Below are positions 6,064 to 11,671 of a stretch of DNA of 64,000 bases, piece after piece (position 1 is the stretch's first letter; every line of letters begins with the position of its first letter). The notes beneath the pieces are model-generated. The model did no database searches. It saw only the letters and a program-made list of their open reading frames with translations, and was not told the origin of the DNA. The stretch spans positions 313,773-377,772 of the forward strand of contig DAIQMY010000001.1 in NCBI GenBank assembly GCA_036788695.1, written 5' to 3'. This DNA comes from Candidatus Levyibacteriota bacterium. Its GTDB lineage: Bacteria; Patescibacteriota; Microgenomatia; Levybacterales; GWA1-39-11. The translations under genes and the position numbers were made by a program.

Positions 6064-8523
6064 TTAATCCCCGCCTCTTTCTCTTAGTTGTCTTAAGAAA
6101 ATATTCAAATCTTTTTCATCTATGTTTCCTTCATTATCAAAATCTGCAGTTATATGTATATCGTCGCAGATGTTGTTTATTATACAATTGACTAAGATGT
6201 TATAGTCTAGAATATCAAGCACGCCGTCTTTTACTAGGTCTCCAACAGTTAAGGCAGTAGTAGGAAGAGTTATATTATTTCCACTATCTTTTATAGTATA
6301 AAAACCTGGAATTGATTTTTTAAGCGTGGAAGACGCATCGGCGAAATTCACTCTCAGTTGGTATATTCCTGGAGGAATATTTAAAATCGGGATTTCCCCT
6401 GAAAACACACCGTTTTCATAGAGTAAGGGAGTTGTGATGGTTGAAGTAATTTCTCCATTCTTGTCAATAAATTCAATACTAGCAAATCTTACTTTACTGA
6501 TTGGGTCTGTGTTCCCTCCAGCCCCTATTCCAGGATGAATAAGTGATATTTTAATGGTTCCTTTGGATGAAGAAGATGTAGGTGTAGGGTTTGAGGGGGA
6601 GGGAGTACTTGCTACAGAAGTGATAGTGGGCGTAATAGCTGTAGTTGGGGTAGGATTTTGTGGTTGAGCTGTGGGGGTTGGGTTATTTGGCGAGTCTGTT
6701 GGAGTAGGATTTTGGTTATCAGGCATTAAAGAGTTTACTGCGCGTGCAAGATTTAATCGCGGACCAATAGGTCTATCAGTTGATATAGTATCTGCATTTG
6801 AAACTAATATGTTTTTTACTTCATCTGGTGATAGATTTGGGTTAATAGACAGCAGAAGTCCCGCAGCGCCTGCAACATGAGGGGTAGCCATAGATGTACC
6901 ATTGAGACTTTCGTATTGATTTTGTGGCCAGGTAGAAATAATTGATACACCCGGGGCGGAAATGTTGACAATCGAACCGTAGTTTGAAAAAGAGGCGCGT
7001 TGATCAGATTGCGTAGTTGCGCCTACTACAAATGTGCCATTACAGTTAGCAGGAGAACTTGTAGAAGCGTCGACTGGGATTCCTCCGGAAACTCCGTTTC
7101 CTGCTGCTACTATAACGCTTACATTAGCATTTCTCGCGTAGTCTACTGCTTCCTGAAATATACCACAAGGAGAATATCCACCCAAACTCATATTAATAAC
7201 TTTTGCTCCATTGTCTACAGCATAATGAATTGCCTGAATAATGATAGAGTCGTCTCCTTGACACTCACCGTTGTATTGTCCCATCGATTTAATTGCTAAT
7301 ATCTTTACATTCCAATTTACGCCTACAACTCCAATATTGTTATTGGTTAGGGCACCAATTGTGCCCGCTACATGTGTTCCATGTCCACATTCGTCCTGGG
7401 AGTCACTTGTTCCGTTAAAGAAATTATATCCATTTTCAATATGTCCAGATAAATCTTGGTGATTGTAATCAACCCCAGAATCAATAACTGCGACTTTAAT
7501 ATTATTATTTCCTTTTGCCTTGTTCCATGCACTAGGTCCTTGAATTTTTTCCATCCCCCACATTTGTGAAAAATATGGGTCGTTTGGAATCTCTGTTGTT
7601 TGTTTTATCCCGTTTTCAACTGCAAGTTCCACTGTTGGAAGTTTTTTATATTCATCTAGCGCGTTTTGTATTGATGTGTTTTTATCTAATGTTATGACTT
7701 GTGCATATTCTAGGGGTGTTTCATATTTCGTATTTTCCAGTAAGTTTTTTTCTTGGATAAAACTAACTTTCTCTTTGGTATCTGCATATAGCTCTTGTAG
7801 AACCATTGGATTTGGAGTTCTTGACATAGAATTTGCAGCATCCATTGCAGCTATTCTTGCCTGACCAAGTATAGGTTGAGAAGCAATTTTTGCTCTTTCT
7901 TGAAGATTTTCTGCCACGTTTGCAGGTGTTGTACCCTTTTTATACTGTACAATTATTTGCTGTTTTGAACGTTCGATTGGGCTTCTATCCGCTGACTGAA
8001 TAGTTTGAGTGGTTTTGATAGAGTTTGGTGCAGCATTTTTAACTTGAGGCAGCGCAAGAAATAGTTTAACAGCCTTTCTTACGTCAGACCCTTTTTTTAA
8101 GGTTACAAGATTAGTTGCTGACTGAGTTTTTTTTATAGGATATAAGTTTTTTTGAGATATGACCCCAGATTCCTCTTCAACCTTTGCTATCTGTTGTAAT
8201 TGATTAGTGTAGAAAGAAGTTCCTGGTATTTTGCCTGACAATTCCATAAAGAACATTTTAGTTTTATTTATAATTCCCTGAGAGTCTAGTTGTCGTTCTT
8301 TTAATGCAGCCTTGAGCTGTAAAGGGGAAAGTCCTGGTTGGTATACGACAATAATTTGAGAAGAATACTTTTCTAGCTGATTTTCAGCTACGGAATTTGG
8401 GGCAGCATAAGAAGAAGTACATACTGTTTTTAGCAGGAAAAAAAGTATAAGTAAAATAAGACCTCTTTTTAACACATATATATAGTAGCCTGCAAAAAAA
8501 AACTTCGCAATAGGAAAAAGCAT
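6064..8523 (-). CDS. Secreted subtilisin-like serine protease (S8) with duplicated N-terminal propeptide-like domains, Pro/Thr linker and C-terminal dockerin-like domain
   Basis: Signal/TM at N-terminus. Catalytic triad motifs VIDSGVD, HGTHVAGT, GTSMATPHVAG. PT-rich linker (NPTPTDSPNNPTPTAQPQNPTPT...). C-terminal DLVKDGVLDILDYNILV...DFDNEGNIDEKDLNIFL resembles a tandem dockerin calcium-binding repeat. Confidence 0.85.
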   Translation of the reverse strand: MLFPIAKFFFAGYYIYVLKRGLILLILFFLLKTVCTSSYAAPNSVAENQLEKYSSQIIVVYQPGLSPLQLKAALKERQLDSQGIINKTKMFFMELSGKIPGTSFYTNQLQQIAKVEEESGVISQKNLYPIKKTQSATNLVTLKKGSDVRKAVKLFLALPQVKNAAPNSIKTTQTIQSADRSPIERSKQQIIVQYKKGTTPANVAENLQERAKIASQPILGQARIAAMDAANSMSRTPNPMVLQELYADTKEKVSFIQEKNLLENTKYETPLEYAQVITLDKNTSIQNALDEYKKLPTVELAVENGIKQTTEIPNDPYFSQMWGMEKIQGPSAWNKAKGNNNIKVAVIDSGVDYNHQDLSGHIENGYNFFNGTSDSQDECGHGTHVAGTIGALTNNNIGVVGVNWNVKILAIKSMGQYNGECQGDDSIIIQAIHYAVDNGAKVINMSLGGYSPCGIFQEAVDYARNANVSVIVAAGNGVSGGIPVDASTSSPANCNGTFVVGATTQSDQRASFSNYGSIVNISAPGVSIISTWPQNQYESLNGTSMATPHVAGAAGLLLSINPNLSPDEVKNILVSNADTISTDRPIGPRLNLARAVNSLMPDNQNPTPTDSPNNPTPTAQPQNPTPTTAITPTITSVASTPSPSNPTPTSSSSKGTIKISLIHPGIGAGGNTDPISKVRFASIEFIDKNGEITSTITTPLLYENGVFSGEIPILNIPPGIYQLRVNFADASSTLKKSIPGFYTIKDSGNNITLPTTALTVGDLVKDGVLDILDYNILVNCIINNICDDIHITADFDNEGNIDEKDLNIFLRQLRERGGD

Positions 8524-8552: not shown

Positions 8553-8581
8553 TTGACGAGTTTTGAAAGATGTTGTATTAT
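8553..8581 (+). promoter_or_regulatory. Sigma-70-like promoter upstream of tuf
   Basis: TTGACG (8553-8558), 17-nt spacer, TATTAT (8576-8581). ~45 nt upstream of the tuf start. Confidence 0.5.
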
Positions 8582-8626
8582 ACTTTTTACACCTTAAAAA
8601 AGAGGTGATTTTTTTGATTTAAATAT

Positions 8627-9805
8627 ATGGCAACATTTCAACGAAACAAACCACACGTTAATATTGGAACTATCGGTCACGTCGACCATGGTAAAACTAC
8701 TTTAACTGCAGCTATTACCACTGTTTTGGCCAAAAAAGGAATGGCTGAAGCACGCAAATACGAAGATATAGATAATGCTCCAGAAGAGCGAGCAAGAGGT
8801 GTTACGATTAACATTTCTCATCAAGAATACGAAACAGAAAAACGTCACTACGCACACATTGATGCTCCAGGACACGCTGATTATATTAAAAACATGATTA
8901 CTGGTGCCGCACAAATGGATGGAGCAATCTTGGTAGTATCTGCTGCTGACGGTCCAATGCCTCAAACACGTGAACATATCCTTCTTGCGCGTCAGGTTGG
9001 AGTTCCGGCTCTTGTTGTTTTTCTTAATAAAGTAGATATGGTACAAGATCCAGAGCTTATTGATTTAGTTGAGATGGAAGTACGTGAACTTCTTTCAAAA
9101 TATCAATATCCAGGAGATGAGATTCCTATGGTTAAAGGATCAGCTCTTAAGGCAACTCAGGGAGATGCAGAAGCAGAAGCTCAAATAATGGAATTAATGG
9201 CAAAGGTTGATGAATATATTCCTACTCCAGAACGACCAACAGATAAGCCATTATTGATGCCTGTTGAGGACGTTTTTTCTATTAAAGGACGCGGAACAGT
9301 TGTTACAGGACGTATTGAGCGCGGAATTGTAAAAATTAACGATACAGTCGCAATTATAGGTATAAAACCTACAAAGGAAGTAGTTGTTACCGGAGTTGAG
9401 ATGTTTAGAAAACAACTAGACGAAGGACAAGCAGGAGACAATGTAGGTCTTTTACTTCGTGGAATTGAAAAGCAGGATGTAGAGCGCGGACAAGTAATAG
9501 CCAAGCCAGGAAGTATCACTCCACATACAAAATTTGAGGCTGAAGTTTATATTCTTACAAAGGAAGAAGGAGGAAGACACACTCCATTCTTCTCCGGGTA
9601 CAGACCACAATTTTATATCAGAACAACTGACGTTACTGGAGAAATCAAGCTTCAAGAAGGCGTTGAAATGGTTATGCCTGGAGATAACGCAAAAATGACT
9701 GCTGAGCTTATAGTCCCTGTAGCTATGGAAGACGGAATGAGATTTGCAATTCGCGAAGGTGGACGCACAGTTGGAGCAGGAGTTGTTACCAAAATCTTAG
9801 CTTAA
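8627..9805 (+). CDS. tuf: Elongation factor Tu
   Basis: [27 protein letters not shown] motifs. 392 aa. Confidence 0.97.
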
Positions 9806-9873
9806 TAGCTTTTGATTATTTGCACATTTTACATTTAAATTTAGTCCGCCAAGTCGGCGGATGGTAACACAGA

Positions 9874-9899
9874 CCTCGCATCCAATGCGAGGTTTTTTT
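9874..9899 (+). terminator. Rho-independent terminator/attenuator between tuf and rpsJ
   Basis: 8-bp perfect stem CCTCGCAT/ATGCGAGG, loop CCA, followed by T7. A second hairpin (9845-9861) precedes it. Confidence 0.7.
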
Positions 9900-9915
9900 G
9901 TTTAAGGAGAAAAAA

Positions 9916-10224
9916 ATGCCAAAAGGAAGAATAAGAGTTAGACTAAAATCATATGATCCCAGGATTATAGATAGTACGTGTCAACAAATCTTAGACACGG
10001 CAATTCGTACTGGAGCAAAAGTAGTTGGTCCTGTACCTCTTCCTACTCAACGATCTATGTTTGCAGTTAATAAATCTGCGTTTGTTGATAAAAACGCGCA
10101 AGAACATTTTCAAATTAAAACACATAAACGCCTTATTGATATTATGTCCCCAACAGATAACACTATAGAATCCTTAATCCACTTAGATCTCCCAGCAGGT
10201 GTGGATGTAGAAATTAAGATGTAA
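9916..10224 (+). CDS. rpsJ: 30S ribosomal protein S10
   Basis: MPKGRIRVRLKSYD... Shine-Dalgarno AAGGAG 7 nt upstream of ATG 9916. The ORF-track start at 9898 is a TTG inside the terminator T-tract. Confidence 0.95.
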   Translation: MPKGRIRVRLKSYDPRIIDSTCQQILDTAIRTGAKVVGPVPLPTQRSMFAVNKSAFVDKNAQEHFQIKTHKRLIDIMSPTDNTIESLIHLDLPAGVDVEIKM

Positions 10225-10225
10225 C

Positions 10226-10600
10226 ATGTCTTTATTGGAAAGAATACGTGCTCCATTTAAAAAAGCAAATCATTTTCCACCCGTGGTTTTTCCCTCAAGT
10301 AAAGAAGTAAAGAAGACCCCCACAACTGAAAATCCATATGCGAATAATTCTTTAAATGACTTTTTAAAGATTAATTCATTTGAAAAATTATCAACAGAAG
10401 AGCGGATTCAAATTTCTAAAAACCTTCGCAAGATGGCAGAAGAAGCAGAGAGCGAATTTCATGAAAAAAGTGCGATTCGAGACAGAGATGAGAGCGTGAA
10501 ACTTATGAGAATAGTGTTTGAATTGGAGAAAATGAATAATTACCAGACAGATACATCTGAGGTGAATCAGGATTTTTCATCTTCCAAGCATCTAAAATAG
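10226..10600 (+). CDS. Hypothetical hydrophilic K/E-rich protein inserted between rpsJ and rplC
   Basis: 124-aa ORF starting 2 nt after the rpsJ stop. No recognisable domain. Codon usage resembles neighbours. Confidence 0.45.
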   Translation: MSLLERIRAPFKKANHFPPVVFPSSKEVKKTPTTENPYANNSLNDFLKINSFEKLSTEERIQISKNLRKMAEEAESEFHEKSAIRDRDESVKLMRIVFELEKMNNYQTDTSEVNQDFSSSKHLK

Positions 10601-10750
10601 ATGGGATACGTTTCCATAGAGAGTTTAGCCTCGTTGCGAGCTTGCATTTTGCTTACGACTTCTATATAATAACTTTTACTCATGTTTAGGTTTACTACCG
10701 AGACTGAATGGAACACTACATAAGAGCTTAGCTGCATTTTTTTGCGTATG

Positions 10751-10778
10751 AAGCGACTTTATGTAGTCGCTTTTTTTG
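10751..10778 (+). promoter_or_regulatory. Terminator-like hairpin + U-tract immediately upstream of rplC start (putative attenuator)
   Basis: AAGCGACT-TTATGT-AGTCGCTT, a perfect 8-bp stem, followed by T7. It ends 12 nt before the rplC ATG. Confidence 0.5.
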
Positions 10779-10789
10779 TGTTTAAACAT

Positions 10790-11671
10790 ATGTCTTTACA
10801 AGCAATTATTGGGAAAAAAATAGATCAGACGCAGGCATTTCTGGAAGACGGAAGACGAATTCCTCTTTCACTGATTTCTGTGTCTGGAAATGTTATTGCA
10901 CAAGTAAAGACATTGGAAAAGGACAAATATACGTCTGTACAGCTTGGATTTGGAGATAAAAAAAAGGTAAATAAAGCAACAGAAGGACATGTAAAAAAAG
11001 CGGGACTTACAAAAACACCCCGCTTTTTTCGTGAAGTAAAAGTTGAAGATATCACAGGATATGAGGTTGGGACAGTCGTAAACGTTGAGGAAATGCTTGA
11101 GCTAGGAGACGTTATTGATGTAACTGGAACATCAAAGGGAAAAGGATATGCTGGGGTAGTTAAAAGACATGGGTTTAAAGGTGGACCGAGAACGCACGGA
11201 CAGTCTGATCGTGAACGCGCGCCTGGTTCAATCGGTCAAACAACAACACCTGGACGTGTTTATAAGGGAAAAAGGATGTCCGGGCGTATGGGAAATGAGC
11301 GTGTGACTATTAAAAATCTGACAGTAGTTGATATTAAAGATGGCATAATTTATGTTCGTGGTTTGGTTCCAGGGGTGAAGGGGTCATTAGTAATGATTTC
11401 AAAAGTGAAAGAAGATAAGAGAAGTAGAGCCACAAAGAAGAAATTTGTTCCTCTTTTCTCAATCAAAGAAGAGGTTCTTGAAGAAAAAAGCGTAGAGCCT
11501 GTTGTTGTAGAGACTGTAGAAGTTGAGACACTTCCCGAAGATCCACAAAAAGTTGTTGAAGAAAAGATAGAGGAAACAGCTGCGCCTATAGAAATAGCAA
11601 AAGAAGAAGTAAAAGTAGACGATAAACCTAAAAAAGAAGCTGTATCTGAAGGAAAAGAGGAGGATAAGTAA
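10790..11671 (+). CDS. rplC: 50S ribosomal protein L3 with long K/E-rich C-terminal extension
   Basis: MSLQAIIGKKIDQTQAF start. L3 core through ~residue 200, then ~90 aa charged tail (KVKEDKRSRATKKK...EGKEEDK). Confidence 0.9.
   Translation: MSLQAIIGKKIDQTQAFLEDGRRIPLSLISVSGNVIAQVKTLEKDKYTSVQLGFGDKKKVNKATEGHVKKAGLTKTPRFFREVKVEDITGYEVGTVVNVEEMLELGDVIDVTGTSKGKGYAGVVKRHGFKGGPRTHGQSDRERAPGSIGQTTTPGRVYKGKRMSGRMGNERVTIKNLTVVDIKDGIIYVRGLVPGVKGSLVMISKVKEDKRSRATKKKFVPLFSIKEEVLEEKSVEPVVVETVEVETLPEDPQKVVEEKIEETAAPIEIAKEEVKVDDKPKKEAVSEGKEEDK

Follow-up and report, generated by a model that had tools for sequence, protein, structure and literature searches.

An orphan gene and a putative ribosome-mediated transcription attenuator between rpsJ and rplC in a Candidatus Levybacteria lineage

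The stretch of DNA analysed in this work, hereafter referred to as the window, comprises 64,000 nucleotides (nt) of a Candidatus Levyibacteriota genome (assembly GCA_036788695.1, contig DAIQMY010000001.1), and our subject is the junction at which rpsJ, encoding ribosomal protein S10, gives way to rplC, encoding ribosomal protein L3. On balance, we think that two unrelated things lie between these genes, the first being an orphan open reading frame (ORF) of 124 residues, named ORF124, and the second a ribosome-mediated attenuator of the rplC operon. The RNA leader ahead of rplC appears to be a previously undescribed regulatory element, and the interest of the locus lies in this leader, not in ORF124. 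The features of the junction are as follows, with coordinates counted from the first nucleotide of the window.

9916 to 10224, forward strand: rpsJ (ribosomal protein S10), which closes the tuf-rpsJ stretch; identified from the ORF list and its translation, with PF00338 recorded on the identical gene of the sister genome.
10226 to 10600, forward strand: ORF124, an orphan and probably protein-coding gene in the variable slot between rpsJ and the rplC leader; recognised by its coding statistics.
10642 to 10647, forward strand: predicted -35 hexamer of the rplC-operon promoter, TTGCAT; recognised by conservation across type-A leaders.
10665 to 10670, forward strand: predicted -10 hexamer, TATAAT, 17 nt past the -35 hexamer and 11 nt ahead of the ATG of the upstream open reading frame.
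10682 to 10723, forward strand: upstream open reading frame (uORF) for a putative leader peptide of 13 codons, MFRFTTETEWNTT, with the stop codon TAA; recognised by frame conservation.
10715 to 10723, forward strand: 5' strand of the antiterminator, ACTACATAA, which spans the two final sense codons of the uORF and its stop; recognised by its complementarity to TTATGTAGT.
10724 to 10749, forward strand: linker with a weak, variable hairpin (P2); from folding of the window and relatives.
10750 to 10777, forward strand: terminator-like hairpin with T7 (stem 10750-10758/10765-10773, loop TTATGT, T7 at 10771-10777).
10790 to 11671, forward strand: rplC (L3), first gene of the rplC-rplD-rplW-rplB... 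operon; from the ORF list, with no Shine-Dalgarno motif ahead of it.

Between the rpsJ stop codon (TAA, 10222-10224) and the ATG of ORF124 there is a single base, C at 10225 (TAAcATG). A preliminary description of the locus had placed a 124-residue ORF, rich in lysine and glutamate, right after rpsJ, and both its position (10226-10600) and its composition (15 E, 14 K and 14 S residues) were borne out. It had also seen about 190 bp of non-coding DNA ahead of rplC; the spacer does measure 189 nt (10601-10789), but a predicted promoter and a 13-codon uORF lie inside it.

The spacer closes with a hairpin made up of the 5' arm AAGCGACT (10751-10758), the loop TTATGT (10759-10764) and the 3' arm AGTCGCTT (10765-10772), which holds eight perfect pairs, or nine counting G10750-T10773, includes four G-C pairs, and has a predicted energy of -11.8 kcal/mol. 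The T7 run (10771-10777) leaves 12 nt before the rplC ATG at 10790, and the perfect 8-bp hairpin with U7 formerly reported at this distance from rplC was confirmed at 10751-10777. With its G+C-rich stem, short loop and U-run right after the stem, the element has the sequence properties of an intrinsic terminator. Its position goes beyond chance: a scan of the 64-kb window for intergenic hairpins followed by a T-run returned only four sites, all of them on the + strand, and three of these stand just upstream of tuf, rpsJ and rplC. For comparison, we collected 80 related loci through S10, 77 of which contain both S10 and L3. By the same criteria, a G+C-rich hairpin with a T-run precedes rplC in 72 of these 77 loci and rpsJ in 19 of the 80, and the distance from the U-run to the rplC ATG ranges from 6 to 46 nt across the related loci. 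Among sub-clades the stems vary in sequence and the pairing is kept (AAGCGACT/AGTCGCTT, GGTAGCC/GGCTAYC, GACCTC/GAGGTC, ACGGCTC/GAGCCGT and ACCCCGC/GCGGGGT). In an alignment of 19 leaders of type A, the type found in the window (alignment A1), the RNAalifold consensus structure is the terminator hairpin, with the stem paired in 95.9% of alignment cells and compensatory changes at two pairs. The sequence of the terminator loop is likewise conserved, which is unexpected for a plain terminator.

Upstream of the hairpin, a promoter-like arrangement TTGCA(T/A)-N17-TATAAT is invariant in 18 of the 19 type-A leaders, with a variable spacer sequence, and was also found in 56 of 65 distinct metagenomic leaders, which represent 86 loci retrieved with a scan pattern containing only the antiterminator motif and the terminator. 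A consensus promoter scan missed the rplC promoter, as TTGCAT agrees with TTGACA at only three of six positions. Moreover, the 148 nt of promoter and leader (10642-10789) show no difference from the sister strain (L001, GCA_964419005.1), while the synonymous divergence (dS) of the neighbouring genes is 0.006-0.135.

In type-A leaders the uORF begins 11-17 nt past the -10 hexamer and runs for 10-13 codons; in the window its 5' untranslated region (UTR) would be about 5 nt long, which would make it near-leaderless. A frame opened by an ATG at least nine codons ahead of the motif stop is present in 19/19 leaders of A1, against 0/19 in each other frame, and the distinct metagenomic leaders have an in-frame uORF in 61-64 of 65 cases and none in frames 1 and 2. 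A frame-neutral test was applied to 82 distinct type-A leaders, and in 68 of them the first ATG after the -10 hexamer shared the frame of the stop (p=3e-20). The 14 first ATGs that were out of frame lie only 1-4 nt past the -10 hexamer, upstream of any start site, and the transcribed first ATGs are in frame in 68 of 68 leaders. From ATG to stop, eight length classes occur (27, 30, 33, 36, 39, 66, 69 and 90 nt), all multiples of three. In this context, in-frame uORF insertions of 33-36 nt were detected in L047 (4691-4789), L097 and L151 (metagenomic), adding a G/P/A/R-rich stretch (e.g., ...QAAGPRGPLARGEVIVAT) and giving leader peptides of 22-23 codons. When all leader types were considered, a uORF of at least eight codons ending 20-50 nt ahead of the terminator was found in 52 of 68 leaders, compared with 13.3±3.1 in dinucleotide shuffles. 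Judged from these comparisons of sequence, the uORF is kept open and in frame by selection.

The peptide pattern in relatives is M-x4-E-V-x-L-(A/T)-T, and the window peptide MFRFTTETEWNTT has five threonines in 13 residues; no conserved run of regulatory amino-acid codons was found in the uORF across type-A peptides. Such a run is the defining feature of the amino-acid-sensing subclass of attenuators only. The uORF has no Shine-Dalgarno motif, which is no objection to its translation, because a Shine-Dalgarno-like motif (4-18 nt from the start) precedes only 12 of the 61 genes in the window. As a separate observation, the regions upstream of window genes are A/T-rich and several TATAAT boxes stand very near start codons, and Shine-Dalgarno-independent or leaderless initiation is suggested to be widespread among these genes. 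An alternative three-codon mini-ORF, served by an internal GGAGG, was rejected for lack of conservation at its start codon.

The end of the uORF takes part in a second RNA pairing. In the window, ACTACATAA (10715-10723) is complementary to TTATGTAGT (10759-10767), which covers the terminator loop and the start of the 3' arm, with a duplex energy of -9.7 kcal/mol. Type-A leaders share the motif CTACATA(G/A), consisting of the last sense codons and the stop and complementary to the same two parts of the terminator. Across the 19 leaders, 90.5% of the alignment cells of this antiterminator helix are paired, compared with 22-46% when the partner strand is slid by 1-3 columns. Furthermore, the third base of the stop codon (G/A) covaries with C/T in the terminator (GC in eight sequences, AU in four), and a double change from A-U to U-G occurs within the helix in L052. 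The antiterminator and terminator pairings are mutually exclusive and of near-equal energy: truncated where the stem ends, the window leader has a minimum free energy (MFE) of -23.6 kcal/mol in the antiterminated form and of -23.4 kcal/mol with the terminator enforced. The full leader folds with z=-2.76, its MFE structure being again antiterminated, and in this full-length fold the linker (10724-10749) offers a second strand that pairs with the 3' half of the terminator. When ribosome occupancy was modelled by keeping 27 nt around the stop codon unpaired, the predicted pairing probability of the window terminator rose from 0.22 in the free RNA to 0.96, and for a ribosome held at the start it was 0.55; similar switches were modelled for L010, L022, L024, L035, L049, L051, L052 and L059. 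The attenuator function that the preliminary description had proposed for the hairpin gains support from this mutually exclusive pairing, together with the clade-wide conservation, the conserved promoter upstream and the 12 nt downstream, which are too few to hold a promoter.

The leader is also specific to its position. A covariance model built from A1 gave one match in the window (10674-10778, 68 bits) and, apart from a few weak extras, one match per type-A locus, upstream of rplC. On metagenomic contigs, 75 of 77 copies of the leader are followed by the start of L3 at a distance of no more than 200 nt. Rfam returned no family at threshold in the leader, the whole window or 20 relatives, apart from one tRNA, and with E values up to 10 the leader gave a single weak match, on the minus strand, to an unrelated small RNA. 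No tRNA or known small RNA was found in the spacer between ORF124 and rplC. The searchable literature yielded no account of rplC or the S10 operon being controlled by a leader peptide or an attenuator in bacteria of the Candidate Phyla Radiation (CPR).

Other leader types were recognised in further Microgenomates. Type-B leaders (L012-L018, L033, L038-L042, L065 and L068) carry a ATGCCCAAAC motif and an AGCCTA strand that matches the GGTAGCC/GGCTAYC terminator, and they may have a uORF beginning 'MPK...', which in L068 overlaps the rpsJ stop. This uORF is enriched yet ambiguous, since ATGCCC may sit in a promoter spacer at some loci. In type-C leaders (L067-L087), GATACTCTGGTATA...TACCAAAAGTCTCGG closes a variable insert ahead of the GACCTC/GAGGTC terminator. 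Type-B and type-C leaders may be distinct sensors acting on the same operon. In L019, a weak match to the rplC-leader model (2884-2982; 31 bits, E about 0.002) is located just upstream of rpsJ and may represent a related leader at a second site.

Taken as a mechanism, these features suggest that Levybacteria and related Microgenomates attenuate the rplC operon with the translating ribosome as sensor, through a near-leaderless uORF of 10-13 codons whose stop codon lies in the antiterminator, a tentative reading to which we give slightly less than an even chance. The promoter TTGCAT-17-TATAAT would start a leader of about 110 nt at about 10677, with the uORF translated from 10682. The end of the uORF, ACUACAUAA, is complementary to the terminator loop and 3' arm, UUAUGUAGU. 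If this end were free of ribosomes, because ribosomes are few or translation is slow or stalled, the antiterminator would form and transcription would read through into rplC-rplD and beyond; a ribosome at the stop codon would hide ACUACAUAA and the next dozen nucleotides, the terminator would fold, and transcription would end at the U-run. Transcription of the operon would thus vary inversely with translation capacity, a direction of response that we infer. The conserved in-frame uORF points to the translating ribosome as the sensor, rather than to L4, which the preliminary description had invoked by analogy with E. coli.

Several points weigh against this reading. The transcription start near 10677, the translation of the uORF and the termination at the 10777 U-run are all predictions. 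Conservation of the C-terminal residues of the uORF is explicable by RNA pairing alone, and covariation in the antiterminator is modest, with two pairs changed on both sides and strands that are highly conserved. The metagenomic leaders were fetched by a pattern that fixes the antiterminator and terminator strands. Per sequence, the duplex between the upstream strand and the 3' half of the terminator is about one standard deviation better than in shuffles (mean z -0.97). Equilibrium folding gives a ribosome-dependent switch in only 14 of 54 leaders, and type-B and type-C leaders have a stable terminator in every modelled state. The P2 hairpin, clear in many relatives (z down to -5.2), is weak in the window (z 0.3), and a GGAGGTG element common in relatives is absent from the window lineage. 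Finally, a ribosomal protein could act as an effector on the same RNA, possibly alongside the uORF.

Such an effector is the basis of the best-surviving alternative, in which the leader senses a ribosomal protein in the manner of the Escherichia coli S10 leader: excess L4 (or L3) would bind the leader and promote termination, and the uORF would be incidental or auxiliary. The geometry is that of the E. coli case, with a terminator and U-run a few tens of nucleotides before the first gene of the L3/L4 operon; type-C leaders in Gottesman- and Woesebacteria resemble a closed stem with a terminator, some of them without a uORF (L070, L075 and L080); and the failure of most type-B and type-C leaders to switch by equilibrium folding alone would suit a protein effector. 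However, the frame constraint on the uORF, seen in all 68 transcribed first ATGs and across the eight length classes, would have no purpose in a purely protein-mediated model, no Rfam family reached threshold and no motif mimicking ribosomal RNA (rRNA) was identified in the leader, and the leader sits after rpsJ, not before it. We consider this alternative unlikely.

Less probable still, and by our estimate doubtful to a high degree, is a non-terminating role, in which the hairpin and U-run would be a 5'-UTR structure that stabilises the messenger RNA or a U-rich, Shine-Dalgarno-independent ribosome landing site for rplC. The absence of a Shine-Dalgarno motif before rplC, the U-run lying always 6-46 nt ahead of the rplC ATG, and the hairpins with T-runs that also precede tuf and rpsJ in the window would agree with such a role. 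Against it, stem, loop and U7 satisfy every sequence criterion for an intrinsic terminator; a conserved loop, a complementary strand upstream and an isoenergetic second fold characterise a switch and not a static stabiliser; and a comparable hairpin before rpsJ is limited to the 19 of 80 relatives. That the hairpin is a plain intrinsic terminator closing the tuf-rpsJ(-ORF124) unit is very improbable, although rpsJ and ORF124 precede it on its own strand and no other strong terminator comes after ORF124, because leader and promoter are retained where the upstream gene is divergent (L010, L029 and L048), the hairpin accompanies rplC whatever stands upstream, including up to 4.9 kb of cargo, its conserved loop is paired with an upstream strand, and the conserved promoter ahead of it and the mere 12 nt that follow its U-run mean that rplC transcripts must cross it.

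The other occupant of the junction has to be seen against the variability of the S10-L3 gap. It had been stated that S10 is directly adjoined by L3; in this clade that is untrue, since the gap in the 77 loci is never below 73 nt, is mostly 110-250 nt and reaches 450-2000 nt, with unrelated genes, in about one third of the species. In relatives, the genes found in the slot, on either strand, encode Fic, Asp/Glu racemase, peptide deformylase, histidine phosphatase, cytidine deaminase, an EamA transporter, a cation-efflux protein, NUDIX and glyoxalase, and on metagenomic contigs S10 and the leader are separated by 82 nt to 4.9 kb. The rpsJ-rplC junction, commonly assumed to be tight, is thus an operon boundary and an insertion slot in this clade, and because the gap is variable and filled with unrelated genes, ORF124 can be regarded as one more occupant of a cargo slot at this boundary, and not as a disruption of two genes that everywhere else adjoin.

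ORF124 itself, whose exact protein is GenBank HMS22421.1, is probably a genuine protein-coding gene, judging from its sequence, and an orphan restricted to one species-level Candidatus Levybacteria lineage; its translation is probably coupled to the rpsJ stop. Compared with the sister strain it has nine synonymous and nine non-synonymous changes (ratio of non-synonymous divergence, dN, to dS of 0.23; binomial p=0.0037 for the synonymous excess), its codon score per codon is +0.336 in its own frame, where window genes reach 0.434±0.097, and -0.86/-0.94 in the remaining two, and its frame is unbroken in all five known variants. No match was found in Pfam, NCBIfam or PDB sequences, and PHROGs gave only a weak one (E=0.02). 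Searches against 5.8 billion clustered proteins (word-indexed) and 1.84 billion representatives (full HMMER) retrieved only its own 90% cluster, and tblastn on the 166 related loci found nothing beyond a 43-residue N-terminal remnant in L009. In this locus, with S10 100% identical and L3 86% identical, ORF124 is cut to a 45-codon N-terminal remnant starting right after the rpsJ stop; in L008, with S10 100% identical and L3 89% identical, there is no ORF at all.

The preliminary description had seen in ORF124 a lineage-specific protein associated with the ribosome and had proposed a search for homologues beside rpsJ. None was found in the 80 related genome loci or the 86 metagenomic loci with this junction, hence no conserved linkage to ribosomal protein genes, and the protein is truncated or absent in relatives with identical S10. 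Pfam, NCBIfam, the PDB and a fold search revealed no homology to a ribosomal or ribosome-binding family. The single-sequence AlphaFold2 model has a mean predicted local distance difference test score (pLDDT) of 62.6, with its first 40 residues disordered and a helical hairpin spanning residues 57-106, and a Foldseek search of the PDB with this model returned nothing at E<1. The likeness of its two helices to helical hairpins, including small ribosomal chains, appeared only at E>3 and was treated as meaningless. Nothing ties ORF124 to the ribosome, and a ribosome-associated role is not supported. ORF124 fits no protein family and is of little importance, being one more lineage-specific orphan.

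ORF124 could also be without function, a reading frame that is open by chance or is decaying within an enlarged spacer. In the closest relatives the ORF is truncated or absent and homologues are found nowhere, its dN of 0.031 exceeds that of tuf, rpsJ, rplC, rplD, rplW and rplB (0-0.003) at least tenfold, making it the most diverged and fastest-evolving piece of the region, and its structure model is of low confidence and half disordered. The synonymous excess, the gene-like codon use in one frame only and the intact frame in five variants argue against this, and we regard it as improbable. A spurious ORF had been expected to lack conservation and to have poor coding statistics: conservation in related genomes was indeed not seen, whereas the coding statistics are gene-like.

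Several observations were made in the neighbourhood of the junction. The tuf-rpsJ spacer (9806-9915) holds hairpins at 9843-9861 and 9871-9895, the latter followed by T8, directly before the rpsJ Shine-Dalgarno sequence AAGGAG, and its 110 nt are identical in the sister strain. It also gave, outside the rplC leader, a sub-threshold match to the Rfam family freshwater-2 (29.1 bits against a gathering score of 49.9), a name for which nothing relevant was found in the literature. With comparable hairpins in only 19 of 80 relatives, this region appears to be a second leader, limited to the lineage. Ahead of tuf, a hairpin (8590-8607) and a T7 run ending 20 nt before the tuf ATG at 8627 come after the promoter-like TTGACG-17-TATTAT (8553-8581), so that the arrangement of promoter, hairpin and U-run occurs three times in a row, at tuf, rpsJ and rplC. 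Further upstream, divergent from tuf, a gene on the minus strand (6064-8523) encodes a secreted subtilisin-like peptidase of 819 residues (PF00082, according to the record of the sister genome) with a low-complexity linker rich in P, T and S.

Downstream, L3 (293 residues), L4 (263) and L23 (116) are longer than usual in bacteria owing to lysine- and glutamate-rich extensions at the C-terminus of L3 (11380-11671), the N-terminus of L4 (11674-11850) and the C-terminus of L23 (12740-12817). In the sister genome (L001 4523-5446, equivalent to 10748-11671 of the window) and on several contigs, L3 has been called as 307 residues from an ATG inside the terminator hairpin. We rejected the ATG at 10748 as the L3 start, since the N-terminus of L3 aligns from 10790 and the extension meets a stop in L010; the start inside the hairpin is likely a recurrent mis-annotation, in which gene callers extend L3 through the hairpin.

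To our knowledge, the regulation of ribosome synthesis in CPR bacteria is essentially unknown. These bacteria have small genomes and few recognisable regulators, and they cannot yet be grown alone. In this context, the rplC leader, which is clade-wide and readily recognised by its putative promoter, leader peptide, antiterminator and terminator, offers a handle on the tuning of ribosomal protein synthesis. If the attenuation mechanism proposed here were true, translation capacity would feed back directly on ribosome synthesis, and ribosome sensing would stand in for, or add to, the autoregulation by L4 that is known from E. coli, suggesting that the ribosome, rather than a single ribosomal protein, can serve as the feedback sensor. 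The leader motif is not in Rfam and could join RNA family databases.

The obvious point of comparison is the E. coli S10 operon leader, in which transcription attenuation depends on L4 and NusA. The rplC leader resembles it in having a terminator and U-run shortly before the first gene of a large ribosomal protein operon that contains rplC and rplD, and in an operon output that would be set by premature termination, here predicted. It differs in being located after rpsJ and directly before rplC, in having what appears to be its own promoter, and in a conserved in-frame uORF that ends, with its stop codon, within the antiterminator strand. Rfam searches of the leader, the window and 20 relatives revealed no homology in sequence or structure to this E. 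coli leader or to other curated leaders of ribosomal protein genes. As a putative cis-regulatory 5' leader of ribosomal protein genes, it may be likened to the L10, L13, L19, L20 and L21 leaders of Rfam and to the L4 leader of Archaeoglobi, which precedes rplC-rplD (PMC7247131). Several curated ribosomal protein leaders end in intrinsic terminators, as the rplC leader is predicted to do; in contrast to it, they are protein-binding rRNA mimics without a leader peptide.

The order of promoter, short ORF, mutually exclusive antiterminator and terminator, and structural genes is that of the trpL, hisL, pheL and thrL attenuators. In attenuators of amino-acid operons, the position of the ribosome on the leader ORF decides which hairpin forms. 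Unlike these, the rplC leader has no conserved run of regulatory codons, precedes ribosomal protein genes and contains a near-leaderless uORF in which the critical position would be the stop codon itself, and its host belongs to the CPR.

Closer parallels are found among attenuators that respond to translation status, such as the bmrB-bmrCD system of Bacillus subtilis and the growth-rate-dependent ampC attenuator of E. coli. Leaders of the ermC type also respond to translation status without amino-acid specificity (PMC2965389). In systems of this kind stalled or absent ribosomes alter the fold of the leader, and the short leader ORF ahead of rplC would, as in these cases, report general ribosome activity or occupancy and not the supply of one amino acid. 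Whereas the ermC, bmrB and ampC systems act on resistance or efflux genes, the target of the rplC leader is the ribosomal protein operon itself.

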